From the NCBI GenBank assembly GCA_900541645.1, contig UQKQ01000001.1, forward strand, positions 113,741 to 177,740: a DNA stretch of 64,000 nt, written 5' to 3'. The DNA comes from an uncultured Collinsella sp. GTDB taxonomy: Bacteria > Actinomycetota > Coriobacteriia > Coriobacteriales > Coriobacteriaceae. Below are positions 10,517 to 38,617 of this stretch, piece after piece. A program made the translations under genes and the position numbers. The notes under the pieces are model-generated. The model did no database searches. It was not told the origin of the DNA and saw only the letters and a program-made list of their open reading frames with translations. How positions within the stretch are numbered: the stretch's first letter is position 1; every line of letters begins with the position of its first letter.

Positions 10517-11173
10517 TTAGCCTTCCTTGCGGACTTTTTGCAGGTAGCGGTATACGCTGGGCTCCGAAATGCCCAGCGCGGTGGCGGCGCAGGCCACAGC
10601 GCCCTTGAGCATGAACACCCCGTTGCCGTTGAGGTGGCGAATGACGTCCACGCGGTCGCTCTGACCAAGCGACGCTACATCCAGCCCGCGCGCGCTCAGC
10701 AACTCGGTAATGCTGCGGTCGATGAGCTCCTGCGTGGACTCCGAAAGGCTTTCGACCTCGATAGGGGCGGGCTCCGTGCGCGTCGGCGCCGCGTCGAAGC
10801 ATGCCATGAGCTGCTGCGCCATGGTGTTGATGGAGCGCACGGTCGAGAGGTCGGTGTTGACGCAGAGCATACCGACGATCTCGTTATCCTCGCGGATAAA
10901 GTACGTCGCCGACTCCAGCGTTTTGCCGCCGGCGCCGCGGCCCTCGTAGCCCGTAATAAACGGCAGGTCGCAATACTTGGGGTCGTGCATGATCTTGAGC
11001 GCCAGATCGGTGGCGGGACCGCCGACCTTGCGGCCACTCACGATGCCGTTGCGAATATCGACGATGGCGTGGTCGGGATCCGAGAAATCGTGCAGCACGA
11101 TCTCGCTGTTCTTGCCGAGTATCTGCTCCAGGAAATCGACCATCGGCAAAAAGCGGCGTACGGTCTCGTTCAC
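10517..11173 (-). CDS. YheO-like PAS-domain transcriptional regulator (DauR/YheO family, C-terminal HTH)
   Basis: GTG start with AAGGAG 7 nt upstream (the ORF track over-extends the N-terminus). Has a PAS_6-like block (VLHDFSDPDHAIVDIRNG) and a C-terminal HTH (GISEPSVYRYLQ). Divergent from the NCS2 permease. Confidence 0.75.
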   Translation of the reverse strand: MNETVRRFLPMVDFLEQILGKNSEIVLHDFSDPDHAIVDIRNGIVSGRKVGGPATDLALKIMHDPKYCDLPFITGYEGRGAGGKTLESATYFIREDNEIVGMLCVNTDLSTVRSINTMAQQLMACFDAAPTRTEPAPIEVESLSESTQELIDRSITELLSARGLDVASLGQSDRVDVIRHLNGNGVFMLKGAVACAATALGISEPSVYRYLQKVRKEG

Positions 11174-11525
11174 GGGCAACTCCTTTGGGTGAAATCGGAA
11201 ATGTTCATAACAATTTTTTCTCATGGTAACACGCTGCTCATCATCTCGTATATCCGCAGGTACATTGCGTAATGCAGACGAACGGTATGATTTTGGCCGT
11301 AAACGGTCGACCAAAAGAAAAGTAAGATGTTATTTAGACCAGACACATTCCTGACCTGCGGAAACGAGTTATTTCAGCCGAAGAATAGTCTGATAACAAA
11401 AAATTATTATTGAGAATGAGAATCATCTTTAATACGATATGCAACGAAGGCACAACCTCAACCCCGCACTGCGTCACAATAGAGCGTTAGATGCGAAAAC
11501 AACTACTTCGAGGATTGGTGGTCAA

Positions 11526-12920
11526 ATGACCCAGGAGACGGTTACGAACGGCACTGAAGTCCTGTTCACTCGTGAAGGCATGCCTCCCGTTAAGGAAATG
11601 ATCCCGTGTGCCCTTCAGCACGTACTGGCTTCGTTTGCCGGTATCATCACCCCGGCTGTCATCATGGCCGGTGTCTACGGCTTTAATAGCCAGCAGAGCA
11701 CCGACATCATCCAGGTCGCGCTCATTCTTTCGGCGATCGACACGGCCCTTCAGGCCTTCGCTCCCTTCCGTCGCATCGGCGGCGGCCTGCCCATCGTCAT
11801 GGGCGTTTCGTTCGCGTTCCTGCCGGCCCTGCAGGCCATGGGTGCCTCGGGCTTTAGCTTTGGTGCGCTGCTGGGCGGCGAGATCGTCGGCGGCGCCGTC
11901 GCGGTCCTCTTTGGTCTGGCCTACAGCAAGATCAAGTGGCTGTTCCCGCCCGTCGTGACCGGTACGGTCATCTTCTCCATTGGCGTCTCTCTCTATCCCA
12001 CGGCCGTCAAGTACATGGCCGGCGGCATGGGCACGCCGCTGTGGGGCACCCCGCAGGCCTGGTGCGTCGCTCTTATCACCTTCGCCGTGGTCTTTGCGCT
12101 CGCCAACTTTGGCAAGGGCACGCTCAAGCTGGGCTCCGTGTTCTTTGGCATGATCGTTGGCATGATCGTCTCCATCCCCTTCGGCATGATCGACTTCTCC
12201 AGCGTCGCCACCGCTCAGGTCTTCGCCCTTCCCAAGCTCATGCCCTACGCGCTCGAGTTTGATCCCGAGGTCTGCATTACCCTCGCCGTCGTGTTCCCCA
12301 TGGTTGCCATCCAGGTTATCGGTGACGTCTCCGCCGCCTGCCTGGGCTCCATCGACCGTATGCCCACCGAGCGCGAGCTCTCCGGCGCTATCGTGTCGCA
12401 GGGCCTCACCTCTATGGTCGGCGGCCTGCTGGGCGGTCTTCCCACCAGCGCCCTTGGCCAGAACGTGGGCATCATCTGCTCCAACAAGGTCGTTAACAAG
12501 TGGGTCTTTGTGATCATCGCAGCCGTCTTTGCCATCGCCGGTCTGTTCCCGCAGCTCTCTGCCGTCCTTTCCGCTATCCCGCAGCCCGTTATCGGCGGCG
12601 CGACCGTCGGCGTCTTTGGCACCATTACCATGAACGGCGTGCGCATGTTCACCCGCGAGGGCCTCACGCAGCGCACTACCACCATCGTCGGTACCTCCGT
12701 CGTCTTTGGCCTGGGTATCTGGATGGCCAGCGGTTGCCTTGCCGGCGAGGGTATGCCCGCCTGGGTGTCCACCGTCATCGGCTCCAATGCCGTAACCCCC
12801 ACCGCCATCATGGCCATTGTCCTTAACCTGATCCTTCCGCAGACGCCGGTCGTGGCTCAGCACATCGATGCCGCCAAGGACGCTGCCGTGGATCTGGTCT
12901 TGCCCGAGAGCAAGAAGTAA
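11526..12920 (+). CDS. NCS2-family nucleobase:cation symporter (xanthine/uracil permease)
   Basis: About 464 aa with 12–14 TM segments and NCS2 signature blocks (QHVLASFAGIITPA, QNVGIICSNKV). Confidence 0.85.
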   Translation: MTQETVTNGTEVLFTREGMPPVKEMIPCALQHVLASFAGIITPAVIMAGVYGFNSQQSTDIIQVALILSAIDTALQAFAPFRRIGGGLPIVMGVSFAFLPALQAMGASGFSFGALLGGEIVGGAVAVLFGLAYSKIKWLFPPVVTGTVIFSIGVSLYPTAVKYMAGGMGTPLWGTPQAWCVALITFAVVFALANFGKGTLKLGSVFFGMIVGMIVSIPFGMIDFSSVATAQVFALPKLMPYALEFDPEVCITLAVVFPMVAIQVIGDVSAACLGSIDRMPTERELSGAIVSQGLTSMVGGLLGGLPTSALGQNVGIICSNKVVNKWVFVIIAAVFAIAGLFPQLSAVLSAIPQPVIGGATVGVFGTITMNGVRMFTREGLTQRTTTIVGTSVVFGLGIWMASGCLAGEGMPAWVSTVIGSNAVTPTAIMAIVLNLILPQTPVVAQHIDAAKDAAVDLVLPESKK

Positions 12921-13115
12921 CCAATTCGGTGCTATTCGTCGGCGGACGCATCGCCTCGTCCGCCGACGTCATGCGGCGCCAAGCCGCACTTCAAAGGGTT
13001 TGTCCCTTTGGTGAAGCGTTGGCGGGAGAGGGCCCGTTTCCGGTGTAGGCCGGCGCTTCGCACTCCACCATGTCAGAGGTGTCAAACCCCGCCTCTGATG
13101 TTGAAGGGAGCATCC

Positions 13116-14471
13116 ATGCTTCTGGTCGCTAACGGTTCCGTTTTTACCCGCAACGCTCAGACCCCGTTTATTCCAAACGGTGCGGTCGCCATTGACGGAG
13201 ATACGATCGTCGAAGTGGGCCCCGAGTGCGAGCTCAAGGCCAAGTACCCGGATGCCGAGTACGTCGACGCCCAGGGCAACCTCATCATGCCCGGACTCAT
13301 CAACTGCCACACCCACATCTACTCGGGTCTGGCCCGCGGCCTTGCCATTAAGGGCTGCAACCCCACCAACTTCCTGGAGAATCTTGAGCAGCAGTGGTGG
13401 AAGATCGATGACAACCTGACGCTCGACGGCACCAAGGCCAGCGCCTATGCCACGATTCTTGACTCCATCCGCGATGGCGTCACAACGATCTTCGATCACC
13501 ACGCGAGCTTCTGCGAGATCCCAGGCAGCCTCTTTACCATTAAGGATGCAGCTCAGGAGCTGGGCATGCGTTCGTGCCTGTGCTACGAGGTCTCCGACCG
13601 CCGCGGTCAGGAAAAATGCGACCAGGCCATTGCCGAGAACGCCGAGTTTGCCCAGTGGGCCGCCAAGGAGCGTCGCGATAACCACAACCACATGATCGCC
13701 GCCATGTTTGGCGGTCACGCCACCTTTACGCTGTCGGACGAGACCATGGATAAGATGGCCGAGGCCAACAACGGCCTGACCGGCTTCCACATCCATGTGT
13801 GCGAGGGCATGAATGACGTGTGGGACTCCCGCCTCAACCGCGGTGGCATCAGCCCCGTCGAGCGCCTGCTGCAGCACAATTTGCTGGGTCCCGACACCAT
13901 GCTCGGCCACTGCATCCACGTGACGCCTGCCGAGATGGATATCGTCAAGGAGTCCGGCACCTGGCTCGTCAACAACCCCGAATCCAATATGGGCAACGCC
14001 GTGGGCTGCGCTCCCGTGCTCGAGTTCTTCCGCCGCGGCATCCCCGTGTGCATGGGCACCGACGCCTACACCCACGATATGCTCGAGAGCCTCAAGGTCT
14101 TCCTGATCATTCAGCGCCACAACGCAGCCATGCCCAACGTGGGCTGGTGCGAGGCCATGACGATGCTGTTCGAGAACAACGCCAAGATGGCGAGCAAGTA
14201 CTTCGATCGCAAGCTCGGCGTGCTCGAGGCCGGCGCTGCCGCCGACGTCATCGTTATGGACTACAAGCCCTTTACGCCGCTGAGCGAGGAGAACATCGAC
14301 GGCCACATGCTCTTTGGCATGATGGGCAAAAACTGCCGCACCACCATCATCAACGGCCGCGTCCTGTACAAGGATCGCGAGTTTGTCGGTATCGATGAAG
14401 AAAAGATCAACGCGTGGACCATGGCTGAGTCCAAGAAGCTCTGGAGCACGCTCAACGATCGCACCTACTAA
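13116..14471 (+). CDS. ssnA: SsnA-like putative aminohydrolase (chlorohydrolase family), selenium-dependent hydroxylase cluster member
   Basis: Matches E. coli SsnA block-for-block: CHTHIYSGLARG (vs HNHFYSGLSRG), DHHASF, GVLEAGAAAD (vs GLLEAGYKAD), NGRVLYKDREF. RBS GAAGGGAG. Confidence 0.8.
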   Translation: MLLVANGSVFTRNAQTPFIPNGAVAIDGDTIVEVGPECELKAKYPDAEYVDAQGNLIMPGLINCHTHIYSGLARGLAIKGCNPTNFLENLEQQWWKIDDNLTLDGTKASAYATILDSIRDGVTTIFDHHASFCEIPGSLFTIKDAAQELGMRSCLCYEVSDRRGQEKCDQAIAENAEFAQWAAKERRDNHNHMIAAMFGGHATFTLSDETMDKMAEANNGLTGFHIHVCEGMNDVWDSRLNRGGISPVERLLQHNLLGPDTMLGHCIHVTPAEMDIVKESGTWLVNNPESNMGNAVGCAPVLEFFRRGIPVCMGTDAYTHDMLESLKVFLIIQRHNAAMPNVGWCEAMTMLFENNAKMASKYFDRKLGVLEAGAAADVIVMDYKPFTPLSEENIDGHMLFGMMGKNCRTTIINGRVLYKDREFVGIDEEKINAWTMAESKKLWSTLNDRTY

Positions 14472-14620
14472 TTACAAGTAGATTCACGCGCGTCGGATGT
14501 TTCGCCGCATCCGGCGCGCGCATAGGCGGCCTCCGCGGGGTCGCCGGCGCTTGTGCTAGCGCTACACCGTATTTGCGCCCGCCGCGCGGTCTCGCCGGGC
14601 GTTACAGAGAGGAGCTCACT

Positions 14621-17620
14621 ATGAGCGACATCATGAGGCCGATCCCGTTTTCGCAGCTGATGAACTGGATCATCGAGGAGCACAAGACCCAGGACGCCAT
14701 CTTTGGCGTGCGTAAGATGGTCACGACCAACCAGGAGGGTGCGCTTCCCATTTTTGACGAGCGCATCGAGACTCCGTTTGGCCCGGCTGCCGGTCCCAAT
14801 ACGCAGCTGGCCCAGAACATCGTGGCCTCTTATGTGGCCGGTTCTCGCTTCTTTGAGCTCAAGACCGTCCAGGTTATGGACGGCGAGGAGCTCTCCAAGT
14901 GCGTCAACAAGCCCTGCATCGTGGCTCAGGACGAGTGCTACAACTGCGAATGGTCGACCGAGCTCGAGGTTCCGCAGGCCTTTGCCGAGTACGTGAAGGC
15001 ATGGTTTGCCTGCCACCTGATCGCTCGCGAGTACGGCCTGGGCAGCCCGGACGGTTTTGTCTTTAACATGTCGGTGGGCTATGACCTCGAGGGTATCAAG
15101 AGCCCCAAGGTCGACGCCTACATCGAGGGCATGAAGGACGCCAGCGGCTCCGAGGTTTGGAACGAGTGCCGCACATGGGCGCTCGCTAACCTGGACAAGT
15201 TTGAGCATGTCGATGCCGCGTTTGTCGAGTCCATCCCGGCGCGCGTCTCCAACTCCATCACCGAGTCCACGCTGCATGGCTGCCCGCCGGCGGAGATCGA
15301 GCGCATCGCGACCTATCTGATCACCGAGAAGGGCCTCAACACCTACATCAAGTGCAACCCCACGCTGCTGGGCTATGAGTTTGCCCGCCAGCGTCTGAAC
15401 GAGCTGGGCTTTGACTACATCGTCTTCGACGATACGCACTTCCGCGAGGACCTGCAGTGGGCCGACGCCGTGCCCATGTTCGAGCGCCTGATTGCCCTGT
15501 GTGCCGAGCGTGGCCTGGAGTTTGGCGTCAAGCTGACCAACACGTTCCCCGTCGACGTGACGAGGAACGAGCTGCCTTCCACCGAGATGTACATGTCGGG
15601 CCGTTCGCTGTTCTCGCTGACCATCGAGGCCGCCCGTCGCATTACCGAGCAGTTCGATGGCAAGTTGCGTATCAGCTACTCCGGTGGTGCCACGGTCTAC
15701 AACATCCGTGCCCTGTACGATGCCGGCATTTGGCCCGTTACCCTGGCGACCGACGTGCTCAAGCCCGGTGGCTACGAGCGCTTTAGCCAGATGGCTGGCG
15801 AATTTACCGATCTGGACGGCAAGCCGTTCGCGGGCGTCTCGCTCGAGGCCGTGACTGCGATCCAGACCGACTCGCTCACCAACCCGCTCTACAAGAAGCC
15901 GCTGCGCCCGTTGCCCGACCGCAAGGTTGCCGGCAAGAGCCCGCTTTCCGACTGCTTTACCACGCCGTGCCGCACGAGCTGCCCCATCCAGCAGGATATT
16001 CCCGCCTATCTGGCGGCTGTTGACGAGGGCCGCTACGAGGACGCACTCAACATCATCATCGAGCGCAACGCCCTGCCGTTCATTACCGGCACCATCTGCC
16101 CGCATCCCTGCGGCCGTGCCTGCGAGCGTGCATTCTACGAGCCCGAGGGCGCCCAGATCCGCGCCAGCAAGCTCAAGGCCGCCCGCGAGGCCATGACCGC
16201 CGTGCTGCCCAAGCTGCGCGCCCAGACCATCACCAACGACGGCGAGCGCAACGTTGCCGTTATCGGCGGCGGCCCGGCCGGCCTGGCGACGGCGTTCTTC
16301 CTGACGCGCGCTGGCGTGCCCGTCACTATCTTTGAGGCCCGCGATTCGCTCGGCGGCGTGGTCCGTCACGTGATCCCCGAGTTCCGTATTGCCAGCGACG
16401 ATATCTCCCACGACGCTGAGCTTTGCCTGGCCTTTGGTGCCAAGGTTCAGCTCAACGCCCGCGTGGAGTCCATTGACGAGCTCAAGGCCCAGGGCTTTAC
16501 CGACGTGGTCGTGGCCACCGGTGCCTGGATGCCCGGCTCTGCGGGCCTAGGCGAGGGTGCCGAGCTCGATGTGCTGGAGTTCCTCGAGGCCGCCAAGAAG
16601 GGCGAGAAACTCGAGCTGGGCGAGGACGTCGTGGTCATTGGCGCCGGCAACACCGCCATGGACGCCGCCCGCGTGGCCAAGCGCCTGGCTGGCGTGAAGA
16701 ACGTGCGCCTGGTGTATCGCCGCACCAAGAAGCAAATGCCCGCCGACGAGGAAGAGCTCGATCTTGCTCTTGCTGACGGCGTTGAGTTCTGCGAGCTGCT
16801 GGCGCCCAAGGCGCTCAACGGCGCCGTGCTGACCTGCGATGTTATGGAGCTTGGCGAGCCGGATGCAAGCGGCCGTCGCAGCCCTGTCGCCACGGGCGAG
16901 ACCGTCGAGCTTCCCGCCACCACGGTGATCTGCGCCGTGGGCGAGGGCATCGATGCCAGCCTGTACGATGCCGCGGGCGTCGAGCACGACCGTCGCGGCC
17001 GCCTTGCCGCCACCTCCACCGGCGTCGAGGGCGTCTGGGCTGCCGGTGACTGCCGTCGCGGTCCGGCCACCGTGGTCGAGGCTATCGCCGACGCCGCCGA
17101 GGTCGCCCGTGCCATCGCTGGCGTGGACTTTAACAAGTACGCCGACCAGAATGCTCAGGCCGGTCGCGAGGACGCCTGCTACGAGCGCAAGGGGTCGCTG
17201 TGCCGCGACAAGCGCAATTGCACCAAGACCCGCTGCCTAGGCTGCGGCTCGGTGTGCGAGGTCTGCTGCGACGTATGCCCCAACCGCGCCAACGTGGCAA
17301 TTAAGGTGCCGGGCCTGGCCAAGCATCAGGTCGTCCATGTCGACGGCATGTGCAACGAGTGCGGCAACTGCGCCGTGTTCTGCCCCTACCAGGAGGGTCG
17401 TCCCTACAAGGACAAGCTCACCCTGTTCTGGAGCGAGCAGGACATGGAGAACTCCGAGAACGAGGGCTTCCTGGCCGTGGACGAGGATCACTTTAAGGTC
17501 CGCGTCGCCGGCACGGTCCGCACCGTCTCGGTCGATGCCGTCAACACCGGTCTGCCCGAGGCCGTCCGCCTGACCATCAAGGCCGTGCGCGACAGCTATC
17601 CGTACCTTCTTAAGAAATAG
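14621..17620 (+). CDS. ygfK: YgfK-like putative selenate reductase / molybdenum hydroxylase accessory oxidoreductase (DPD-like N-domain + GltD-like FAD/NAD domain + 4Fe-4S)
   Basis: The N-terminus MSDIMRPIPF…GPAAGPNTQLAQNIV…FELKTVQV matches E. coli YgfK. Has a GGGPAGL dinucleotide motif and C-terminal Cys-rich clusters. Confidence 0.85.
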   Translation: MSDIMRPIPFSQLMNWIIEEHKTQDAIFGVRKMVTTNQEGALPIFDERIETPFGPAAGPNTQLAQNIVASYVAGSRFFELKTVQVMDGEELSKCVNKPCIVAQDECYNCEWSTELEVPQAFAEYVKAWFACHLIAREYGLGSPDGFVFNMSVGYDLEGIKSPKVDAYIEGMKDASGSEVWNECRTWALANLDKFEHVDAAFVESIPARVSNSITESTLHGCPPAEIERIATYLITEKGLNTYIKCNPTLLGYEFARQRLNELGFDYIVFDDTHFREDLQWADAVPMFERLIALCAERGLEFGVKLTNTFPVDVTRNELPSTEMYMSGRSLFSLTIEAARRITEQFDGKLRISYSGGATVYNIRALYDAGIWPVTLATDVLKPGGYERFSQMAGEFTDLDGKPFAGVSLEAVTAIQTDSLTNPLYKKPLRPLPDRKVAGKSPLSDCFTTPCRTSCPIQQDIPAYLAAVDEGRYEDALNIIIERNALPFITGTICPHPCGRACERAFYEPEGAQIRASKLKAAREAMTAVLPKLRAQTITNDGERNVAVIGGGPAGLATAFFLTRAGVPVTIFEARDSLGGVVRHVIPEFRIASDDISHDAELCLAFGAKVQLNARVESIDELKAQGFTDVVVATGAWMPGSAGLGEGAELDVLEFLEAAKKGEKLELGEDVVVIGAGNTAMDAARVAKRLAGVKNVRLVYRRTKKQMPADEEELDLALADGVEFCELLAPKALNGAVLTCDVMELGEPDASGRRSPVATGETVELPATTVICAVGEGIDASLYDAAGVEHDRRGRLAATSTGVEGVWAAGDCRRGPATVVEAIADAAEVARAIAGVDFNKYADQNAQAGREDACYERKGSLCRDKRNCTKTRCLGCGSVCEVCCDVCPNRANVAIKVPGLAKHQVVHVDGMCNECGNCAVFCPYQEGRPYKDKLTLFWSEQDMENSENEGFLAVDEDHFKVRVAGTVRTVSVDAVNTGLPEAVRLTIKAVRDSYPYLLKK

Positions 17621-17631: not shown

Positions 17632-18111
17632 ATGGCCAAATCCATTCAACATAACGTGGCCTACGTTGCCTGCGGAAGCGGCTGTGCCTCCGCAGGCGGC
17701 GACGCCCGCTGCAGCGAAGGCTGCATTGGCTGTGGCGCCTGCGTCACGGCCTGCCCCCACGGCGCCATTGCGCTGGTCGATGGCATCGCCCGCGTTGATC
17801 GCTCCAAGTGCACGGGCTGTGGCCTGTGCGGCATGGCGTGCCCGCAGCGCGTGATTGCCTTCGTTCCCGGCTACCAGAACATTCTGGTGCGCTGCAACAA
17901 CACCGATAAGGGCGCCATTGCGCGCAAGATCTGCGACACGAGCTGCATCGGTTGCGGTATGTGCGCCAAAAAGTGCCCTGCCGGCGCTATCCGCATCGAG
18001 GACAACTGCGCCCATATCGACGGCGCGGACTGCCTGTCGTGCGGCATGTGCGCCGTCGTCTGCCCGCATGGCGCCATTCACGACCGCACCGGCATCGCCG
18101 CCGGCGTGTAG
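17632..18111 (+). CDS. 4Fe-4S ferredoxin-domain protein (4 CxxCxxCxxxCP motifs)
   Basis: 159 aa with four canonical 4Fe-4S binding motifs. Sits between ygfK and xdhD, where E. coli has the FAD subunit ygfM. Confidence 0.8.
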   Translation: MAKSIQHNVAYVACGSGCASAGGDARCSEGCIGCGACVTACPHGAIALVDGIARVDRSKCTGCGLCGMACPQRVIAFVPGYQNILVRCNNTDKGAIARKICDTSCIGCGMCAKKCPAGAIRIEDNCAHIDGADCLSCGMCAVVCPHGAIHDRTGIAAGV

Positions 18112-21008: not shown

Positions 21009-21009
21009 A

Positions 21010-29477: not shown

Positions 29478-30863
29478 ATGACTAAAGAACTCGATTTTGA
29501 TGCCATTAAGGCTGCTGCGGAGTCCCATCGTGCTGATATGACTCGCTTCCTGCGCGCCATGATCTCTCACCCCTCTGAGTCCTGCGAGGAGGGTGAGGTT
29601 GTCGCCTGCATCAAGGCCGAGATGGAGAGCCTTGGCTATGACGAGGTCAAGGTCGACGGCCTGGGCAACGTCATGGGCTTTATGGGCGAGGGCGACAAGA
29701 TCATCGCCATCGACTCCCACATCGACACCGTCGGCATCGGCAACATCGAGAACTGGGATGCCGATCCCTATGAGGGCTACGAGACCGACGAGATCATCTA
29801 CGGCCGCGGCGGCTCCGACCAGGAGGGTGGCATGGCTTCTGCTACCTACGCTGCCAAGATGATGAAGGACATGGGCCTCATCCCCGAGGGCTACAAGATC
29901 ATGGTCGTCGGCACCGTCCAGGAAGAGGACTGCGACGGCATGTGCTGGCAGTACATCTACAACAAGGACGGCATTAAGCCCGAGTTCGTCATTTCCACTG
30001 AGCCCACCGACGGCGGCATCTATCGCGGTCACCGCGGCCGCATGGAGATCCGCGTCGACGTTCACGGCACCTCCTGCCACGGTTCCGCTCCCGACCGCGG
30101 CGACAACGCCATCTACAAGATGGCCGACATCATCGCCGACGTCCGCGCCCTCAACAACAACGGCTGCGACGAGTCGACCGACATCAAGGGCCTCGTCAAG
30201 ATGCTCGACCCCAAGTACAACCCCGAGCACTTTGAGGACGCCCGCTTCCTGGGCCGCGGCACCTGCACCGTCAGCCAGATCTTCTACACCAGCCCCAGCC
30301 GCTGCGCTGTCGCTGACTCCTGCGCCATCTCCATCGACCGTCGCATGACCGCCGGCGAGACCTGGGAGTCCTGCCTGGACGAGATCCGCAACCTGCCGGC
30401 CGCCAAGAAGTACGGCGACGACGTGAAGGTCTCCATGTACATGTACGACCGTCCGTCCTGGACCGGCGAGGTCTACGAGACCGAGGCTTACTTCCCCACG
30501 TGGATCAACAAGGAGACCGCTCCGCACGTCAAGGCCCTCGTCGACGCCCACAAGGCCATGTTCGGTGACGAGCGCATCGGCTGCGAGCCCAGCATGGACA
30601 AGCGCACCGGTCGTCCGCTGTGCGACAAGTGGACCTTCTCCACGAACTGCGTTTCCATCCAGGGCCGCTATGGCATCCCCTGCGTTGGCTTTGGCCCGGG
30701 TGCCGAGTCTCAGGCTCACGCTCCCAACGAGGTCACCTACAAGGACGACCTGGTCACCGCTGCCGCCATGTATGTTGCTGCTTTGAACCTCTACGATCCG
30801 AGCCAGGCCGATGGCGACGCTACCGTGTTCCGCGCTGGTCTGACCAACAACAAGATCGACTAG
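29478..30863 (+). CDS. ygeY: YgeY-family M20 peptidase (putative selenium-metabolism hydrolase)
   Basis: Matches E. coli YgeY blocks (ADMTRFLR.M…[70 protein letters not shown]). Confidence 0.85.
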
Positions 30864-31065
30864 TCCCATTCCTTGATCTTGTTGAGCCGGGGACAGCCTG
30901 TGTCCCCGGCACCCCCTGTTGACTTGGGGCCCGCGGTCGTTATCTCCCATGCTTCCTCAACGGTAGCGGGTCCTCGTCATAGCGCTCTGCATGTTCTAGC
31001 CACACGCGCATGCCGGAGCACATCTACTCATTGCGATCGTTTCATCTATGGAAAGGATATTTACA

Positions 31066-32267
31066 TGGACGCCAAGTTTACCGAGCTCGTCGAGCAGCTG
31101 AACGGCCTCGATTTTAAGGGCATGTACGGCAGCGACTTCCTGCACACCTGGGATAAGACCACCGATGAGCTCAAGGCTCTCTACATCGTTGCCGACGCCC
31201 TGCGCGAGCTGCGCGAGAACAACGTTTCGTCCAAGATCTTCGATTCGGGCCTGGCCGTCTCTCTGTTCCGCGACAACTCCACCCGTACGCGCTTCTCCTT
31301 CTCTAAGGCCGCCAACCTGCTCGGCCTCGAGCTGCAGGACCTGGACGAGAAGAAGTCCCAGATCGCTCACGGCGAGACCGTCCGCGAGACCGCTACCATG
31401 ATCTCCTTCATGGCCGACGTCATCGGCATCCGCGACGACATGTACATCGGCAAGGGCGACGCCTACATGGCCGAGGTCTCCGAGTCTGTCCAGCAGGCCT
31501 ACGAGGACGGCGTTCTGGATCACCGTCCCACGCTCATCTCCCTGCAGTCCGACTCCGATCACCCCACGCAGTCCTCTGCCGACATGCTCTACCTCATCAA
31601 CGAGTTTGGCGGTCTTGAGAACCTCAAGGGCAAGAAGGTTGCCGTCACCTGGGCCTATTCGCCCTCTTACGGCAAGCCGCTGTCCTGCCCGCAGTCGCTG
31701 ATCAGCCTGCTGCCCCGCTTTGGCATGGACGTCACCCTGGCCCACCCCGAGGGCTACGACCTCATGCCCGAGGTCGTCGAGCGCGCCAAGGGCTATGCCG
31801 CCGAGTCCGGCACCACCTTTAAGCAGGTCAACACCATGGCCGAGGCCTTCGAGGGCGCCGACATCGTGATCCCCAAGAGCTGGGCTCCGTTTGCCGCCAT
31901 GGAGAAGCGTACCAACCTGTACGCCGAGGGCGACGACGCCGGCATCGCAGCGCTCGAGAAGGAGCTGCTCGCTCAGAACGCCACCCATCAGGACTGGTGC
32001 TCCACGACCGAGCTCATGGAGAAGACCGCCAACGGCCAGGACACCATCTTTATGCACCCGCTGCCCGCCGACATCTCCGGTGTCTCCTGCGAGCACGGCG
32101 AGGTCAACGCCGACGTCTTTGACATGCACCGCGTGGGCATGTACAAGGAGGCCAGCTACAAGCCGTACGCCATCGCAGCCATGATGTTCCTGCAGAAGGT
32201 TGCCGATCCCGCCGCTACCCTCAAGGCCCTCGACGAGCGCAACACCGCCCGTTGGTTCCAGGCCTAA
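31066..32267 (+). CDS. ygeW: YgeW-family knotted carbamoyltransferase
   Basis: Matches E. coli YgeW blocks (KIFDSGLAVSLFRDNSTRTRFS, DEKKSQIAHGETVRETATMISF, WAYSPSYGKPLS, TLAHPEGYDL, HPLPADISGVSCEHGEV). RBS GAAAGGA. Confidence 0.85.
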
Positions 32268-32417
32268 AGCCGCGCTGAGGTAAGCCATGTAAAGGGGGCG
32301 CTCTGCCAACCGGCGGGGTGCCCCTTTTTGCATCGTGGGCGTGCGGGATAAGCGCTTTCGATGTAGATGCCCCGCGACGCGAGTTATGGGTACGATGGTT
32401 TCAGGGGAGGTATCGCC

Positions 32418-33032
32418 ATGAAACTCGGTTGCGTCATTATGGCTTCGGGCGAGGGCAAGCGGTTTGGCTCTAACAAGATGCTTGCCGATATCTATGGCAA
32501 GCCGCTGATTGCCCGGACTATCGATTCGGTTCCCCGGGGCTTTGACGTCGTGGTTTCGACGCGTTGGCCCGAGGTCGCCCAGATTTGCGAGGACAAGCAT
32601 TGCCCGTGCGTGCTGCACGATGGCAAGCTCAGGAGCGAAAGCGTCCGTGCGGGCCTTTCGTGGGGGGCGAGCCGCGGCTGGAAGGGTTGCCTCTTTTTGC
32701 CGGGCGACCAGCCGCTCGTGAGTTCGGATTCTTTTGAGGCCATGGTTCGCGCGTTTGATGAGCGTGGCCGCAAGTATCCGGTGCGTCTTGCGTGCAACGG
32801 TGAGCCTTCGAGCCCGGTGCTCTTTCCGGCGGAACTGTTCGATGCACTTATGTGTCTTGAGGGTAAGGACGGCGGCGGTTCGATCCTCAAGGACCGTACC
32901 GACGTGGTGCTGGTCGAGGCGCGTGCCTACGAGCTGTGGGACGTCGATACCGTCAAGGGACAGCGACGCATAACGGAGCATATCGCCGCCTGCTCGTATT
33001 TTGATCGCGTGGCCAACTGCATCAATCAATAA
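32418..33032 (+). CDS. MobA-like NTP transferase (molybdenum cofactor cytidylyl/guanylyltransferase, YgfJ/MocA-like)
   Basis: GGAGG RBS. N-terminal nucleotide-binding block LGCVIMASGEGKRFG…K.L and MobA-like fold. Confidence 0.7.
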   Translation: MKLGCVIMASGEGKRFGSNKMLADIYGKPLIARTIDSVPRGFDVVVSTRWPEVAQICEDKHCPCVLHDGKLRSESVRAGLSWGASRGWKGCLFLPGDQPLVSSDSFEAMVRAFDERGRKYPVRLACNGEPSSPVLFPAELFDALMCLEGKDGGGSILKDRTDVVLVEARAYELWDVDTVKGQRRITEHIAACSYFDRVANCINQ

Positions 33033-33041: not shown

Positions 33042-34409
33042 ATGATCATCATCAAAAACGGCGCACTCGTGACGCCACAGGGGCTTCGTCGCGCCGATCT
33101 TGCCATGGAGGGTGACAAGATTGTGCGGATTGCCGCGGCAATCGAGCCGGGCGAGGGCGATACCGTCCAGGACGCCACCGACTGCTGGGTGTTTCCCGGC
33201 TTTATCGACGGCCACACGCACATGCAGTGCTGGACCGGTATGGACTGGACGGCCGATAGCTTTGAGACGGGCACGCGCGCGGCGGCGTGCGGCGGCACCA
33301 CCACGATCGTGGACTATGCCACGGCCGACCGCGGCGTGACCATGCCCGATGCCCTGGCCGAGTGGCATCATCGCGCCGACGGCACCTGCACCGCCAACTA
33401 TGCCTTCCATATGGCGCTTGCCGAGTGGAATGAGCGCAACCGCGCCGATCTTTCGGCCATGCGCGAGGCGGGCGTGTCGTCGTTTAAGACCTACTTTGCC
33501 TACGACCATCTGCGCCTGGACGATGCCGAGACGCTCGAGGTGCTGGAGGAGCTCAAGCGCGTGGGCGGTATCCTGTGCGTGCATTGCGAGAACGGTACGC
33601 TGGTGAATGAGCTGCAGAAGCGCGTGTTTGAGCAGGGTATCCACGGGCCCGAGGGCCATGCGCTCAGCCGTCCGGATGTGTGCGAGGCCGAGGCAGTGAG
33701 CCGTCTGCTATATCTGGCGCACTTGGCCGGGGATGCTCCGGTCAACGTGGTGCACCTTTCGACCAAGCTGGGGCTCGAGGCCATTCGCGCTGCCAAGGCG
33801 CGCGGGCAGAAGAACATCTATGTCGAGACCTGCCCTCAGTATCTGATGCTCGACGATACCTGCTATCTGGAGCAGGGCGAGGACGGCTTTGCGGGCGCCA
33901 AGTATGTGATGAGCCCGCCGCTGCGCCATGCGGGTGACCGTGCGGCACTGCGCGAGGCGCTTGTGGCCGGCGAGATCGATACGATTGCGACCGACCACTG
34001 CAGCTTTAACCTGCACGGGCAAAAGGACCGCGGGCGCGATGACTTCCGCGCGATTCCCAACGGCGGGCCCGGTGTGGAGCATCGCCCCGTCGCGATCGCT
34101 ACGAGTTTTGAGGGACAGCTGGGCCCCGAGGATCTGTGCCGCTTGATGAGCGAGAACCCGGCGCGCGTCTTTGGCATGTATCCGCGCAAGGGCTGTCTTG
34201 CCGAGGGCTCCGATGCCGACGTGTGCGTGTGGGATCCCAAGGCGCGCTGGACGATTAGCGCCGCGACGCAGCATCAGGCTGTGGACTATACGCCGCTCGA
34301 GGGCTTTGAGGCGCACGGCCGCGCCAAGGCCGTGTTTGTGAACGGCGTGCTGGCTGCGCGCGACGGCGAGCCCACCGGAGCCCAACCCGGCCGCTACGTG
34401 CCCCGCTAA
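33042..34409 (+). CDS. Cyclic amidohydrolase: D-hydantoinase/dihydropyrimidinase family (HyuA-like)
   Basis: 455 aa. Metal-binding block GFIDGHTHM near the N-terminus, carboxylated-Lys region (SFKTYFAY), and a C-terminal DxD…WDP block. Confidence 0.8.
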   Translation: MIIIKNGALVTPQGLRRADLAMEGDKIVRIAAAIEPGEGDTVQDATDCWVFPGFIDGHTHMQCWTGMDWTADSFETGTRAAACGGTTTIVDYATADRGVTMPDALAEWHHRADGTCTANYAFHMALAEWNERNRADLSAMREAGVSSFKTYFAYDHLRLDDAETLEVLEELKRVGGILCVHCENGTLVNELQKRVFEQGIHGPEGHALSRPDVCEAEAVSRLLYLAHLAGDAPVNVVHLSTKLGLEAIRAAKARGQKNIYVETCPQYLMLDDTCYLEQGEDGFAGAKYVMSPPLRHAGDRAALREALVAGEIDTIATDHCSFNLHGQKDRGRDDFRAIPNGGPGVEHRPVAIATSFEGQLGPEDLCRLMSENPARVFGMYPRKGCLAEGSDADVCVWDPKARWTISAATQHQAVDYTPLEGFEAHGRAKAVFVNGVLAARDGEPTGAQPGRYVPR

Positions 34410-34488: not shown

Positions 34489-35226
34489 CTACCCCTGGAG
34501 GCTGGTGGCGATGAGGGGGCGGCCGAGGGCTGCCTCGAAGCAATCTGCCATCGTTGGATCGGCAAGCGTGTCGACTTGGTTGAGCATAATGCGGGCATTG
34601 CTGAGGTTCAGCATCTGCAGCTCGGCATTGAGCGCCATAGCGACGCGCTCTGGGGTGGCGGTGTCGGTGGGCTCGCAGCCGCAGCGCTCGCAGAAGACCT
34701 CGGGGCGGTGGACAACCTCGGCGACGGGCTTGCCCAGCCCCGAGGCGCCGACGACCCAGACAACGTTTGCCGTGCCGGCGGGAACGACCGGCTCCCAGGC
34801 GGCGTGGGCCTTGAGCGGGAGCCGCTTGCTGCCGTCCGCCTCGGCCAGGACGTAGTCAAAGCACTGTGCCAGCTCGCCGAGCGGCTCGGCGGGGGCGGAG
34901 AGCTTGCCCGTCTGGGGGTTCAAGACGCCTGCCTGGCAGATGCTTCCGCGCGCAAGGCCCGCGCAGGCCTCGCAAGTGCAACCGGGGACATGTGCGGCGC
35001 CCGGCTTCCAAGGCGCGGCGTCCAGACGACGGCTCGACCCGTCCCATGGCACGCCGGCGACGGGAAACATGTGCGTGGTGGTACAGAGGAGCACGCGGCC
35101 GCCAGCGCGCATGAGCTCGAGCCCCAGCGTCTTCAGCAACGTCGACTTGCCGCCACTGCCGATAATCGCGGTAATGCCCGGCTCGATCCTGAGCGCCGAG
35201 GCAAGATTGCCGCCAACCGTTTCCAT
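34489..35226 (-). CDS. yqeC: YqeC-family selenium-dependent hydroxylase accessory protein (P-loop)
   Basis: 245 aa with an N-terminal P-loop (IIGSGGKSTLL) and the YqeC size/pattern. The only minus-strand gene in the block, as in E. coli-type clusters. Confidence 0.7.
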   Translation of the reverse strand: METVGGNLASALRIEPGITAIIGSGGKSTLLKTLGLELMRAGGRVLLCTTTHMFPVAGVPWDGSSRRLDAAPWKPGAAHVPGCTCEACAGLARGSICQAGVLNPQTGKLSAPAEPLGELAQCFDYVLAEADGSKRLPLKAHAAWEPVVPAGTANVVWVVGASGLGKPVAEVVHRPEVFCERCGCEPTDTATPERVAMALNAELQMLNLSNARIMLNQVDTLADPTMADCFEAALGRPLIATSLQG

Positions 35227-35328: not shown

Positions 35329-36123
35329 ATGCTCGTTTATGTTCGCGGCGCCGGCGATATCGCCACGGGCGTCGCCGCTCGCTTGGTGCGCTCCGGCGTG
35401 TCGGTCGTTATGGCCGATATCGCGGTTCCCACGTGCATCCGCCGCACAATCAGTTTTTGCGAGGCCATTCGCCTGGGCGAGGTCCAGGTCGAGGGCATTC
35501 GCGCTCGCTTGGCACAGACGCCGGCTGAGGCGCTCGAGATTACCCAAGCGGGAGACGTCGCCGTTGTGGTGGACCCTCAGGCCAAGATGCTCGGCGAGCT
35601 GAAACCCGCTGCCGTGGTCGACGCGATTCTGGCCAAGCGCAACTTGGGCACCACGCGCGACATGGCGCCTGCCGTCATCGCTGTGGGGCCGGGCTTTACC
35701 GCGCCGGTTGACTGCGACGCCGTGGTCGAGACCATGCGCGGGCATTTTCTCGGCCGTGTCATTACCCAAGGTTCGCCCCAGCCCAACACGGGCGTGCCGG
35801 GCATTATCGCCGGCTATGGCAAGGAACGTGTTATCCACAGCCCCGCCGCCGGCGTGTTTCGGTCCGACCGCGCAATCGGCGACATCGTGAGCGCCGGAGA
35901 CGTGATTGGCTACGCGGGTGATACGCCCATGTGCACGCAGATCGATGGCTGTCTGCGCGGGCTTTTGGCGAACGGCGTGCAGGTGACTGAGGGCTTTAAA
36001 TGCGCCGATGTCGATCCGCGCGGCGACGCCAGCTACATCAACTATATTTCGGACAAGGCGACATCGGTCGGCGGCGGCGTGCTCGAGGCACTCGCTATGC
36101 TCACCGATGTCTTTAGAGGATAG
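35329..36123 (+). CDS. yqeB: YqeB-family (EF2563-like) selenium-dependent molybdenum hydroxylase maturation protein
   Basis: 264 aa. Family assignment from my recall of the short YqeB-family architecture; sits directly upstream of an XdhC-family ORF. Confidence 0.55.
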   Translation: MLVYVRGAGDIATGVAARLVRSGVSVVMADIAVPTCIRRTISFCEAIRLGEVQVEGIRARLAQTPAEALEITQAGDVAVVVDPQAKMLGELKPAAVVDAILAKRNLGTTRDMAPAVIAVGPGFTAPVDCDAVVETMRGHFLGRVITQGSPQPNTGVPGIIAGYGKERVIHSPAAGVFRSDRAIGDIVSAGDVIGYAGDTPMCTQIDGCLRGLLANGVQVTEGFKCADVDPRGDASYINYISDKATSVGGGVLEALAMLTDVFRG

Positions 36124-36132
36124 AAGGCGGCA

Positions 36133-37176
36133 ATGGAAAAGCTCGATGTTGTGAATGCGGCGCTTGCCGCCCTGCGTGCTGGCGAGACGTGCGAGCTCGT
36201 GGTCGTGGCCGGTACGGCGGGGTCATCACCACGCGGCGTGGGCGCCTGGATGGCCGTCTTTGCCGATGGCAGCCAAGCGGGCACCATCGGCGGCGGCAAG
36301 ATTGAGCTTTTTGCGCTGGACGAGGCGCGCGAGCTGCTGGCCGCAGGGCAATCGCGTCTGGTCCGCTACACCATGGGCGGCGAGAACTCCGATACCGGCA
36401 TGATCTGCGGCGGAGCCATCTGCCTGTGCTACCTGCATTTGGATGCGACTCAGGCACCGTTGTTCCAGTCGGTTGCCGACGTCTTGGCCTATCGGCGCAT
36501 CGGCGACTTCGTCATCGACTTTGAGCCGTTTATCGCGAGCGCGCTCGAGGGCGATGTGGTTGAGTACCATGGCGAGACATCGCGCCATACCATTGCCGGC
36601 TGCCCCGAGCTTTCGCTGGTGGAGGAGGGGAGTAAGGTCACCTACACCAACGCCGCCTCCGAGATTCCCCCGGCGCACATCGAGACGCTCTGCCCCGAGG
36701 GCCTGACCTATATCTTTGGCTGCGGCCACGTGGGCGCTGCGACGGCGCGGGTGCTCACGGCGGCGGGCTTTGCCGTCGTGGCTTGCGACGACCGCCCCGG
36801 CACGCTGACCCCCGAATGGGTGCCCGGCGTCTACGACCGTCGTCTGGTCGATTATAAGAACCTGAGCGAGCTGTGTCCCATCGGCCCGCGCGACTTGGTG
36901 GTCGTCGCCACGGCGGGTCACAAGTCCGATATCGACGTGGTGATTCAGGCCATGCGCGCTAAACCCGCCTATCTGGGCTGCCTGGGTTCGCGCCGCAAGA
37001 CCGCCTTTGTGCGCGCCCGCCTGGAGCAGGAGGGCTTCACGCAGGGCCAGATCGACGAGCTGCACCTGCCGATCGGTGTCGCCATCGAGGCCGAGGATCC
37101 CGAGGAGATTGCCATCTCCATCGCCGCCGAGATGATCCACCTGCGCCGCACCAAACTCGTCCCCCGCAAGCGATAG
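36133..37176 (+). CDS. xdhC: XdhC/CoxI-family molybdenum hydroxylase accessory (MoCo insertion) protein
   Basis: 347 aa. N-terminal XdhC_CoxI block and a C-terminal Rossmann-like segment (YIFGCGHVGAATARVLTAAGFAVVACDDRP). Confidence 0.8.
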   Translation: MEKLDVVNAALAALRAGETCELVVVAGTAGSSPRGVGAWMAVFADGSQAGTIGGGKIELFALDEARELLAAGQSRLVRYTMGGENSDTGMICGGAICLCYLHLDATQAPLFQSVADVLAYRRIGDFVIDFEPFIASALEGDVVEYHGETSRHTIAGCPELSLVEEGSKVTYTNAASEIPPAHIETLCPEGLTYIFGCGHVGAATARVLTAAGFAVVACDDRPGTLTPEWVPGVYDRRLVDYKNLSELCPIGPRDLVVVATAGHKSDIDVVIQAMRAKPAYLGCLGSRRKTAFVRARLEQEGFTQGQIDELHLPIGVAIEAEDPEEIAISIAAEMIHLRRTKLVPRKR

Positions 37177-37303
37177 TCGTATCCCAAATGAGCTGCCCCA
37201 GCCCTCTGCCGCATGCGGGTCAAAATGCTACCTGTGCCATATGCCCTATAATGTCCGACCGTTGAGCGGCATGGGGCCGCTGCCTAGGGTATGGGAGGCG
37301 CAA

Positions 37304-38617
37304 ATGGCAGAGTCGGCAGCAGGGGATGCCCTGTTCGAGCGTACGGGAAAAGTTTCGTTTGTGCAGGTATTACCCCATGCACTGCAGCATGTGCTGGCGG
37401 CATTCGCGGGTATCGTCACGCCCGCCATCATTATCGCGTCGGTCTGTGGCTTTACCCCTCAAGAGGAAGCCGCTGTCATCCAGGCGTCGCTCGTCCTCTC
37501 GGCGCTCGACATTTTCCTTCAACAGTTCCCCATAAAAGGTGTCGTCGGTTCGGGCCTGCCCATCGTGATGGGCGCGAGCTTCACCTTCGTGCCGGCGCTC
37601 AAGGCAGTCGGTCTTGAGCTTGGTTTTGCGGCCGTACTGGGCGCCCAGGTAATCGGCGGCGCGCTCGTCGCGCTCTTCGGCCTACTGTTTAGGCGCGTGA
37701 GTTTTCTGTTTCCGGCCCCGGTGCTTGGCACCGTCATCTTTGTCATTGGCCTGTCGCTATGCCCAGTGGCAGTTGCCTCCATGGCGGGCGGGGAGGGCGC
37801 GGCCGATTTTGGCAGTGTCACCAACTGGGCCGTCGCGCTCGTGATGTTTGTCGTCACCTTTGTGGCCGGTAACTACGGCAAGGGCGCGCTTAGGCTAGGC
37901 AGCATCCTGGCCGGTATCTGCGCGGGCTTTGTTTTGGCGGCGGTGCTGGGCATGGTCGACTTCTCGGCTGTCGCGACCGCAAGCTGGTTTGCCCCGCCGG
38001 CGCTTGGCGCCCATCGCCTGGTGTTTGACCCGGCGGCGTGTGCCGTGGTGGGCGTTGTGGCCATTGTTAACGCCGTGCAGGTTATGGGCGAGTTTGCCGC
38101 TGTGTCCTCCGCCGCGCTCGATACCCCTGCGACCGATAGCCAGATCTCGGGTGGCCTGATCGCCAACGGCCTGGTCGGTATGCTGTCGGGCTTTTTGGGC
38201 GGCGTCCCCACGGCAACCTTTGGCCAGAATGTGGGCATTATCGCCGAGAACAAGGTCGTCAACCGCATGGTCTTTACGCTTGCCGCCGTCATCTTGCTCA
38301 TCGCGGGCCTGCTGCCCAAGTGTGCGGCGGTACTCACGTCCATTCCGCAGCCGGTCATCGGTGGCGCCACGATCGGCGTGTTCGCGACCATCGGCATGAA
38401 CGGTGTGGTCATGTTTGCCCGCCACGGCTTGTCTCAGCGCGATACCACGCTCATGGGTCTCTCTATCGCCTTTGGCACGGGCATTGAGCGCACGGCCGGC
38501 GCGCTTGCCGGCGCTGGATTCCCCGCATGGGTTGGCACCGTCTTTGGCGGATCCTCCATTGCCGTCGCCGCGCTCGTTGCTGTGATTCTCAACCTGGTCC
38601 TCCCGCGCCAAAAATAA
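37304..38617 (+). CDS. NCS2-family nucleobase permease (second copy)
   Basis: 437 aa; paralog of 11526–12920 (QHVLAAFAGIVTPA, QNVGIIAENKV). RBS GGGAGG. Confidence 0.85.
   Translation: MAESAAGDALFERTGKVSFVQVLPHALQHVLAAFAGIVTPAIIIASVCGFTPQEEAAVIQASLVLSALDIFLQQFPIKGVVGSGLPIVMGASFTFVPALKAVGLELGFAAVLGAQVIGGALVALFGLLFRRVSFLFPAPVLGTVIFVIGLSLCPVAVASMAGGEGAADFGSVTNWAVALVMFVVTFVAGNYGKGALRLGSILAGICAGFVLAAVLGMVDFSAVATASWFAPPALGAHRLVFDPAACAVVGVVAIVNAVQVMGEFAAVSSAALDTPATDSQISGGLIANGLVGMLSGFLGGVPTATFGQNVGIIAENKVVNRMVFTLAAVILLIAGLLPKCAAVLTSIPQPVIGGATIGVFATIGMNGVVMFARHGLSQRDTTLMGLSIAFGTGIERTAGALAGAGFPAWVGTVFGGSSIAVAALVAVILNLVLPRQK

Follow-up and report, generated by a model that had tools for sequence, protein, structure and literature searches.

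A two-block reductive uric acid (2,8-dioxopurine) gene cluster in a Collinsella aerofaciens-group gut bacterium, with a probable ferredoxin donor and a candidate regulator/operator pair

Urate breakdown by gut bacteria is under study as a treatment for gout and hyperuricaemia; Collinsella is among the abundant genera of the human gut. A gene cluster inducible by uric acid and coding for the 2,8-dioxopurine pathway was reported in gut anaerobes, including Collinsella aerofaciens ATCC 25986 (Liu et al., bioRxiv 10.1101/2022.07.24.501321 and 10.1101/2025.04.24.650524), and the ygeW-xdhD region of Escherichia coli has been described as a reductive uric acid cluster (Li et al., bioRxiv 10.1101/2025.05.19.654654). 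Here, we analyze the cluster of this kind found in an uncultured Collinsella sp., within a 64,000-nucleotide stretch of contig UQKQ01000001.1 (assembly GCA_900541645.1, positions 113,741 to 177,740, forward strand) that we refer to as the window; all coordinates count from its first letter.

The chemistry of the pathway was reported in 2025 by two groups. Urate is converted to 2,8-dioxopurine by XdhAC in Clostridium sporogenes or by XdhD-YgfM in E. coli, followed by reduction by YgfK, ring opening by SsnA, and the successive action of HyuA, YgeW (with carbamate kinase yielding adenosine triphosphate [ATP]), YgeY and YgeX to give pyruvate. These steps were rebuilt in vitro with E. coli and Clostridium enzymes, seven of which together take urate to pyruvate, while gene knock-outs have been published for C. 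sporogenes and E. coli only. In the gut-strain screen of Liu et al., urate was consumed by C. aerofaciens, and strain 4_8_47FAA was also among the consumers; RNA sequencing (RNA-seq) of C. aerofaciens ATCC 25986 showed induction by urate of genes that, in the window, belong to both of the blocks described below. Carbamate kinase lies within the cluster in 33 of 39 published strains and is missing from it in the other 6; that of C. aerofaciens is encoded elsewhere on the chromosome. YqeBC and SelD were present in every cluster-bearing strain of the published gut library.

The host of the window belongs to the C. aerofaciens group, as 80 Collinsella species representatives carry its molybdenum (Mo) enzyme at 98-99% amino acid identity together with the same first gene block. 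G+C content along the window ranges from 57 to 66%, and the codon-position G+C pattern singles out one coding frame per gene. We assigned genes with hidden Markov models (HMMs), using curated NCBIfam cut-offs and Pfam domains, and took identities from BLAST comparisons with E. coli K-12 proteins; all plausible genes of the 64 kb were scanned. For synteny, we retrieved 80 Collinsella loci from different species representatives with the Mo enzyme and mapped segments of the window onto them. The cluster that emerged is the published 2,8-dioxopurine cluster, already known in the same species group. It shares with the clusters of Liu et al. an XdhAC-type Mo enzyme, YgfK, SsnA, HyuA, YgeW, YgeY, YgeX, a permease and YqeBC; like that of C. 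aerofaciens, it has no carbamate kinase within it, and we found no essential difference from the published clusters. We therefore read the region as the anaerobic reductive uric acid cluster of a C. aerofaciens-group gut bacterium, with the pathway, electron donor and regulator roles set out below, at a probability of roughly 0.88. As the cluster itself is published, the value of the present analysis lies in its details: the subtype of the Mo enzyme, the reductive character of the first block, a RidA gene, a variable island, a regulator swap with a candidate operator, and the pairing of a ferredoxin with XdhAC. The words ferredoxin, regulator and permease have no match in the main texts of the Liu et al. 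papers, although their figures may still show such genes or the island, and the supplementary files of the two papers contain no C. aerofaciens gene table.

All seven pathway enzymes, together with YqeB and YqeC, scored above curated cut-offs. This bears out the preliminary description, made from the sequence alone, of a selenium-linked Mo-hydroxylase cluster for purine catabolism that is homologous to the ygeW-xdhD region of E. coli and lies in two blocks: SsnA, YgfK, the selenium-dependent xanthine dehydrogenase family, YqeB, YqeC, YgeW, YgeX and YgeY each exceeded their family cut-off. In the first block, block A, the order is a divergent regulator gene (reg1), a permease gene (perm1), ssnA, ygfK, a ferredoxin gene (fdx) and the Mo enzyme gene. 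Block B begins with a second divergent regulator gene (reg2) and carries the remaining pathway and cofactor maturation genes.

The Mo enzyme (18124-20901, plus strand) is a selenium-dependent Mo hydroxylase of the XdhAC type, scoring 1128.7 against TIGR03311 (cut-off, 830.45). The xdhD type assigned to it in the preliminary description does not hold, as its score against TIGR03313, the XdhD family, is 225.4, far below the cut-off of 1101.9. Its architecture combines N-terminal 2x[2Fe-2S] and Mo domains, without a flavin adenine dinucleotide (FAD) domain, and it is 51-52% identical to genes of ~860 amino acids (aa) of the XdhAC type sited beside ssnA-ygfK. By sequence, the nearest solved structure is the FAD-less aldehyde oxidoreductase of Desulfovibrio (MOP; PDB 1dgj, 1sij/1vlb; E = 1.9e-80), which is likewise a single chain with 2x[2Fe-2S] and a Mo domain but acts on aldehydes, lies in a different genomic context and belongs to a separate NCBIfam family. 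Residue E606 of E. coli XdhD, considered as a urate-reductase marker, was rejected: it lies within an 11-residue insertion specific to XdhD, which the Collinsella enzyme lacks, and is uninformative for XdhAC-type enzymes. As a separate observation, residues 704-745 form a ~41-residue insertion in the Mo enzymes of Collinsella and Atopobiaceae (924-929 aa) relative to the 855-860-aa XdhAC proteins of other lineages; the lineages that have this insertion coincide with those whose ferredoxin gene is upstream, not downstream.

The two genes preceding the ferredoxin gene in block A encode enzymes acting after the Mo enzyme in the published pathway. SsnA (13008-14471, plus strand; NF005540, 631.7 versus 444; TIGR03314, 552.7 versus 455.5) is an amidohydrolase 32% identical to its E. 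coli counterpart; it is the marker gene of the cluster and, by analogy, would open the ring of reduced 2,8-dioxopurine. Its gene probably starts at ATG 13116, which has a ribosome-binding site. Adjoining it, ygfK (14573-17620, plus strand; probable better start, ATG 14621, again with a ribosome-binding site) encodes an iron-sulfur flavoenzyme matching the 2,8-dioxopurine reductase family over its full length (TIGR03315, 1287.6 versus 835.3) and 44% identical to E. coli YgfK.

The other pathway enzymes are encoded in block B. YgeX, a 2,3-diaminopropionate ammonia-lyase (28026-29240, plus strand; TIGR03528, 611.2 versus 532.25; 48% identity to E. coli YgeX), would by analogy carry out the last step, giving pyruvate and ammonia. 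It is followed on the same strand by the M20 hydrolase YgeY, predicted to cleave a ureido group (29469-30863; NF009555, 621.6 versus 321; 59% identity to E. coli YgeY), and by the knotted carbamoyltransferase YgeW (30873-32267; TIGR03316, 728.4 versus 500; 61% identity to E. coli YgeW), for which analogy suggests phosphorolysis of a ureido group to carbamoyl phosphate. A better start for ygeW is ATG 31065, which has a ribosome-binding site and gives ~400 aa, matching homologues of 399-400 aa. Farther along, HyuA (33042-34409, plus strand; TIGR02033, 507.3 versus 393.25; 38% identity to E. coli HyuA) is a D-hydantoinase predicted to open the hydantoin ring.

Block B also holds genes for maturation of the Mo/selenium cofactor. 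Between ygeW and hyuA, in the same position as in Atopobiaceae, lies a gene for a MocA/YgfJ-like Mo cofactor cytidylyltransferase (32367-33032, plus strand; probable better start, ATG 32418, with a ribosome-binding site). Its TIGR03310 score (100.2) is under the cut-off of 186.45, while its Pfam NTP_transf_3 domain is clear (3.7e-29). YqeC, a selenium-cofactor maturation protein (34489-35226; TIGR03172, 141.3 versus 73.05; Pfam YqeC, 5e-32), is 32% identical to E. coli YqeC and is encoded, in a corrected orientation, on the minus strand. YqeB is a stand-alone protein of 264 aa in the family for selenium-dependent Mo-cofactor maturation (35329-36123, plus strand; TIGR03309, 345.1 versus 220), corresponding to residues 270-526 of E. 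coli YqeB, its C-terminal half, at 54% identity. The N-terminal half (residues 22-253) corresponds to the next open reading frame (ORF), an XdhC-family Mo-cofactor insertion chaperone (36133-37176, plus strand; Pfam XdhC_C, 1.8e-35; XdhC_CoxI, 1.7e-19) that remains below NCBIfam equivalog cut-offs (217.7 versus 350; 140.1 versus 161.6). YqeB thus appears as two ORFs, as first described. A stand-alone YqeB is not peculiar to the window, because in locus L093 separate genes encode YqeC, an XdhC-family protein and a 270-aa product that lacks Pfam matches and is probably YqeB; the XdhC-YqeB fusion of E. coli is the unusual form. YqeB and YqeC, both above cut-off and near the Mo hydroxylase, are markers of the selenium-cofactor trait.

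Among all plausible genes of the window, none matched carbamate kinase (AA_kinase), SelD or FAD_binding_5 (YgfM-like), in agreement with the earlier statement that yqeA and selD are missing from it. In Atopobiaceae, carbamate kinase lies between ygeW and mocA; the same spot is empty in the window, where the ygeW-mocA spacer measures 99 bp by the ORF list, or ~150 bp if mocA is given its revised start. With the E. coli cluster, the window shares orthologues of YgeW, YgeY, YgeX, YgfK, HyuA, SsnA, the C-terminal half of YqeB and YqeC, with the MocA-like gene matched by HMM only. E. coli differs in that yqeA belongs to its cluster, XdhC and YqeB are fused, and YgeV, a sigma-54 regulator, takes the place of YheO-type regulators; its Mo enzyme is XdhD (TIGR03313), working with YgfM as FAD subunit and NADH (reduced nicotinamide adenine dinucleotide), whereas Collinsella has the TIGR03311-type XdhAC enzyme with a polyferredoxin.

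Each block has its own nucleobase permease, as initially described, and the NCS2 fold family of both is clear. In block A, perm1 (11439-12920, plus strand) is a nucleobase:cation symporter scoring 340.6 against pbuX (TIGR03173; cut-off, 414.15), 281.8 against the NCS2 superfamily model (cut-off, 291.8) and 65.1 against NF037981 (cut-off, 40). Its identity is 26-28% to UacT and XanQ of E. coli and 59% to the Olsenella block A permease, and it is a probable urate importer. At the end of block B, perm2 (37241-38617, plus strand) is 50% identical to perm1 and falls under all three cut-offs (331.6 versus 414.15 for pbuX, 274.2 versus 291.8, and 37.1 versus 40 for NF037981).

Just to the left of reg1, a gene encoding a RidA-family enamine/imine deaminase (10017-10394, plus strand; TIGR00004, 160.3 versus 106.25; Pfam Ribonuc_L-PSP, 6e-41) starts at ATG 10017 behind the ribosome-binding site AAGGAGA. 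RidA clears the aminoacrylate made by diaminopropionate ammonia-lyase, and in two Atopobiaceae loci (Parolsenella and Olsenella) the gene immediately after hyuA of block B encodes a RidA. Because of this repeated association with the pathway and the fit to its known role, we consider RidA a probable pathway member; its gene probably belongs to the cluster, whose left border then moves outward.

Transferring the roles of the published E. coli and Clostridium orthologues to this organism gives the following scheme. Urate would be taken up through the NCS2 permeases, and the FAD-less, selenium-dependent XdhAC-type enzyme would strip its C6 oxygen to give 2,8-dioxopurine. YgfK would then reduce the ring, SsnA would hydrolyze the product to ureidomethyl-hydantoin, and HyuA would open the hydantoin. 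One ureido group would be taken by YgeW as carbamoyl phosphate, from which a carbamate kinase encoded elsewhere would make ATP, and the other would be taken by YgeY. Finally, YgeX would convert 2,3-diaminopropionate to pyruvate and ammonia, with RidA probably removing the intermediate aminoacrylate. The Mo/selenium cofactor would be built by MocA, XdhC, YqeB and YqeC and by a SelD encoded elsewhere. To this published scheme we add that the ferredoxin would supply the electrons for urate reduction, that two distinct YheO-type regulators would serve the reductive block and the hydrolytic/maturation block, respectively, and that the DNA between the blocks would be a variable accessory island without a role in the pathway.

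The architecture of the Mo enzyme, its length, its gene context and its ~51% identity to context-matched homologues together make it a probable 2,8-dioxopurine dehydrogenase, that is, a urate 6-dehydroxylase. Several points weigh against this reading or parts of it. The roles of the Collinsella proteins are taken over from E. coli and Clostridium orthologues, and carbamate kinase and SelD are likewise expected in this genome from publications on related strains. In the published screen, urate was not consumed by Olsenella uli DSM 7084, though an O. uli metagenome-assembled genome carries block A. In C. sporogenes, purE rather than a ferredoxin gene neighbours xdhAC, so that a dedicated ferredoxin is common, not universal. 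The NCBIfam family name, "selenium-dependent xanthine dehydrogenase," leaves room for xanthine oxidation or a dual activity.

That name is also one support for an oxidative block A, in which a classical selenium-dependent xanthine dehydrogenase would convert hypoxanthine or xanthine to urate with the ferredoxin as acceptor, as part of general purine oxidation. BLAST places the enzyme slightly nearer to E. coli XdhA (249 bits) than to XdhD (219 bits), and the published XdhAC enzyme is reversible in vitro. However, the Mo enzyme encoded beside ygfK-ssnA is a urate reductase in both E. coli and C. sporogenes, the entry compound of the pathway is 2,8-dioxopurine and not xanthine, and C. aerofaciens consumes urate itself. 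Moreover, O. uli encodes, besides an orthologue of the Mo enzyme, a separate and conventional xanthine dehydrogenase: after its block A and a Bmp-type nucleoside ABC transporter lie genes for an XdhA-like Mo subunit (43% identity to E. coli XdhA) and a FAD subunit (locus L082, 20232-22775), giving it two Mo hydroxylases versus the one seen in the Collinsella window. We therefore consider an oxidative role unlikely, and the naming of block A as an oxidation module in the preliminary description is contradicted by the 2025 biochemistry, in which its orthologues reduce urate, reduce 2,8-dioxopurine and open the first ring.

Under the reductive reading, the Mo enzyme needs an electron donor, and the gene beside it points to one. 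NAD(P)H is not used by the published XdhAC enzyme, whose donor in the cell was stated to be unknown (Liu et al., 10.1101/2025.04.24.650524); reduced ferredoxin has been suggested for the clostridial enzymes, with Fdx named only as a generic reductant (Li et al., 10.1101/2025.05.19.654654). In the window, a soluble 4x[4Fe-4S] polyferredoxin of 159 aa, with four CxxCxxCxxxCP motifs and four Fer4 stretches, is encoded between ygfK and the Mo enzyme gene (17632-18111, plus strand), directly before the latter, as ygfM is in E. coli. The earlier observation of a four-cluster ferredoxin in the place of YgfM is thus correct, and the gene is present in 79 of the 80 Collinsella loci.

The closest solved structure to this ferredoxin is residues 124-261 of RnfB (PDB 9eri_B, 7zc6_B; E = 2.3e-34), and it aligns to the polyferredoxin part of that protein. 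It differs in lacking the N-terminal part and in having a Mo hydroxylase, not an rnf operon, as its neighbour. Against the RnfB family model it scores 119.5 versus a cut-off of 437 and matches the profile only from position 124 to 267 of 293; among the listed matches, full RnfB homologues are 263-278 aa long and carry PF04060, which a Pfam scan did not find in the ferredoxin. With the N-terminal region and PF04060 missing and the score under the cut-off, its identification as a full RnfB fails.

Homologues of the ferredoxin (47-56% identity) lay directly beside an XdhAC-type gene in all of the eight independent non-Collinsella contexts inspected; in each, the neighbour was a gene of 855-929 aa with Fer2_2, Ald_Xan_dh_C and MoCoBD domains. 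The ferredoxin gene is upstream of the XdhAC-type gene in Coriobacteriales; in other lineages (including one context annotated Faecousia) it is downstream, no more than 60 bp away and in some cases overlapping. Five of the eight contexts also have ssnA-ygfK before the ferredoxin/XdhAC pair, and in a sixth the contig end cuts ygfK. Gene order differs between lineages, yet the adjacency is kept, which speaks for ferredoxin and XdhAC as a functional pair, and the ferredoxin is probably the electron donor of the Mo enzyme. If so, the partner ferredoxin could explain how a FAD-less urate reductase is supplied with electrons and would ease transfer of the pathway to other hosts.

Each block also has its own divergent YheO-like regulator, as described before: reg1 (10517-11314, minus strand; PAS_6, 3.9e-34; HTH_22, 9.2e-18) is divergent from block A, and reg2 (27095-27748, minus strand; PAS_6, 3.5e-37; HTH_22, 3.6e-15) is divergent from ygeX. 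Both have an N-terminal PAS_6 and a C-terminal HTH_22 domain, all above Pfam gathering thresholds. The probable start of reg1 is GTG 11173, which has a ribosome-binding site and gives 218 aa, a length equal to that of reg2. A weak zinc ribbon match at the reg1 N terminus (E = 2.5e-4) was rejected, as cysteine pairs are missing there and, given that start, this part is probably not translated.

The two regulators are only 30% identical to each other. Reg2 is 55% identical to the block A regulator of O. uli, 51% identical to that of another Coriobacteriales genome (L083) and 44% identical to that of a more distant cluster (L084), while reg1 is only 27-31% identical to the same three proteins. 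Judged by these identities, the block A regulator of relatives has its orthologue in reg2, which amounts to a regulator swap with respect to Atopobiaceae.

In the reg2-ygeX spacer, we identified a candidate reg2 operator consisting of two copies of AACAAAC-N3-TTTGTT, 51 bp apart (27867-27934). These are the only two matches to the palindrome AACAA-N4-6-TTGTT in the 64 kb, where 0.03 would be expected. Across 1.43 Mb of Collinsella loci there are 46 matches, every one of them in the reg2-ygeX intergenic region. O. uli has the same motif, CTAACAAACAGTTTGTTAGG, adjoining its reg2 orthologue. The block A promoter region contains no match to the 17-mer palindrome within 3 mismatches; by the same measure, TAACAAAAAATTATTA, a loose variant picked out there post hoc, was rejected as a reg2-type site. 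When the whole window was scanned with Rfam, the cluster showed no riboswitch for purine, xanthine or anything else, the sole match being a S-adenosylmethionine (SAM) riboswitch in the island. Promoter and terminator consensus scans gave no more sites than shuffled sequence, so that the only guides to operon borders are the spacing of genes and visible hairpins.

That both cis and trans elements differ between the blocks fits separate control. The proposal of two separately regulated modules therefore stands as far as the dissimilar regulators and the confinement of the palindrome to block B are concerned, but it has to accommodate the published induction of both blocks by urate. One speculation is that the two regulators may sense different pathway intermediates. 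More broadly, we see even odds that the polyferredoxin is the dedicated physiological donor, in effect a third subunit, of FAD-less XdhAC-type 2,8-dioxopurine dehydrogenases and that YheO-type PAS/HTH proteins acting on AACAAAC-N3-TTTGTT are the urate-pathway sensors of Coriobacteriales and some Firmicutes. If this is true, the candidate regulator/operator pair could explain urate induction in Gram-positive bacteria.

The two-block layout extends to relatives. In O. uli and the other Coriobacteriales genome (L083), block A consists of a YheO regulator gene and, divergent from it and in this order, a permease gene (O. uli only), ssnA, ygfK, fdx and xdh; next comes a nucleoside ABC transporter, with no block B inside 10 kb. 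Conversely, Parolsenella and another Olsenella have a block B of ygeX, ygeY, ygeW, carbamate kinase, mocA, hyuA and RidA genes, with neither a regulator nor yqeBC, and block A is not within 10 kb. With the modules at least 10 kb apart in these four Atopobiaceae loci, the two-module layout is not confined to Collinsella.

This distance, the different regulators and the missing reg2-type operator at the block A promoter would also suit two independent pathways lying close by chance, with block B a general hydantoin, diaminopropionate or carbamoyl-amino-acid operon. We regard such a coincidence as very improbable. Urate induces genes of both blocks in C. aerofaciens, the seven enzymes jointly convert urate to pyruvate in vitro, and the cofactor maturation genes needed by the block A enzyme lie in block B. 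In addition, ygeX, ygeW and ygeY directly adjoin ssnA-ygfK-xdhAC-fdx in two loci from other lineages (L088 and L092).

In Collinsella, the blocks of the uric acid cluster are separated in every informative locus, and the DNA between them is accessory. In the 26 loci (of 80) that reach both blocks, 4.08-9.64 kb separates the xdh stop from reg2, and in the window 6.2 kb; 18 further loci have ~10 kb 3' of xdh without reaching block B, and many contigs end 150-250 bp past the xdh stop. None of the 80 loci has abutting blocks, and no uninterrupted cluster was found among the informative loci of close relatives. Of the earlier wording "rearranged and split," the two blocks hold, but the phrase takes the E. 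coli order as its reference. Although the inter-block DNA is lower in G+C content (0.57-0.58 versus 0.62-0.66), contains repeats and gene remnants and is where many assemblies break, it is scarcely credible that a natively contiguous cluster was split by an assembly artefact or by a recent insertion specific to one strain, given a gap of at least 4.08 kb in 26 of 26 linking loci, the 18 more with 10 kb downstream and the lack of any abutting case.

The island (20902-27094, 6.2 kb) comprises repeat arrays, orf287, remnants of an ATPase and a DEDDh exonuclease, the SAM riboswitch with a small ORF, and a proline-rich membrane protein gene. Two arrays of 5 and 4 units of an imperfect palindrome with a 62-bp period, GCGGAAAnTGCnTCCC...GGGAnGCnnTTTCCGC, lie at 21009-21318 and 22666-22913; an HMM search found the repeat nowhere else in the 64 kb. 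The arrays flank orf287, which has a weak AbiEi match (7.8e-4), and are bracketed by a 49-bp direct repeat, 88% identical, at 20982-21030 and 22960-23008. Next come the C-terminal half of an AAA-type ATPase of the DUF4143/PDC-S01 type (23177-23803, plus strand; profile positions 228-417 of 422) and the DEDDh exonuclease (24327-25148, plus strand), which falls into two ORFs because of a stop or frameshift close to 24690. PADLOC and Pfam scans of the island gave weak or partial matches only and no coherent defence system. The SAM-I riboswitch (25601-25691, minus strand) scores 45.1 bits against a gathering threshold of 44.4, and the element scores 45.1-45.6 bits in six of six Collinsella loci checked. 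Behind it lies an ORF of ~145 aa without a family match (25170-25607, minus strand); a 206-aa call of this ORF overlaps the riboswitch and is too long.

Across the 80 Collinsella loci, the gap content is a mosaic: orf287 occurs in 44, the exonuclease remnant in 43, the orf206 segment with its SAM riboswitch in 28, the proline-rich membrane protein in 27 (including all 26 that link both blocks) and the DUF4143 remnant in 22. Many Collinsella assemblies break at the 62-bp array. As the repeat-rich island breaks metagenome assemblies, cluster surveys based on contiguity may undercount Collinsella.

Outside the cluster, in the region 38618-39496, a ribosomal protein operon begins with rplE (L5) 320 bp after perm2. 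No rplN or rplX ORF lies upstream of rplE, which is unusual for a spc-type operon; only L5, SecY and L17 of this operon were checked by HMM. Another purine-salvage or catabolism gene, adenine deaminase-like, lies 19 kb downstream of the cluster (57231-59213, plus strand), with a TIGR01178 score of 458.2, just under the cut-off of 472.5. The wider region is flanked by two U32-peptidase/TrhP-like paralogues (7223-9718, minus strand, and 53875-55860, plus strand), and a truncated tyrosine recombinase gene (63433-63915, minus strand) lies near the right end of the window.

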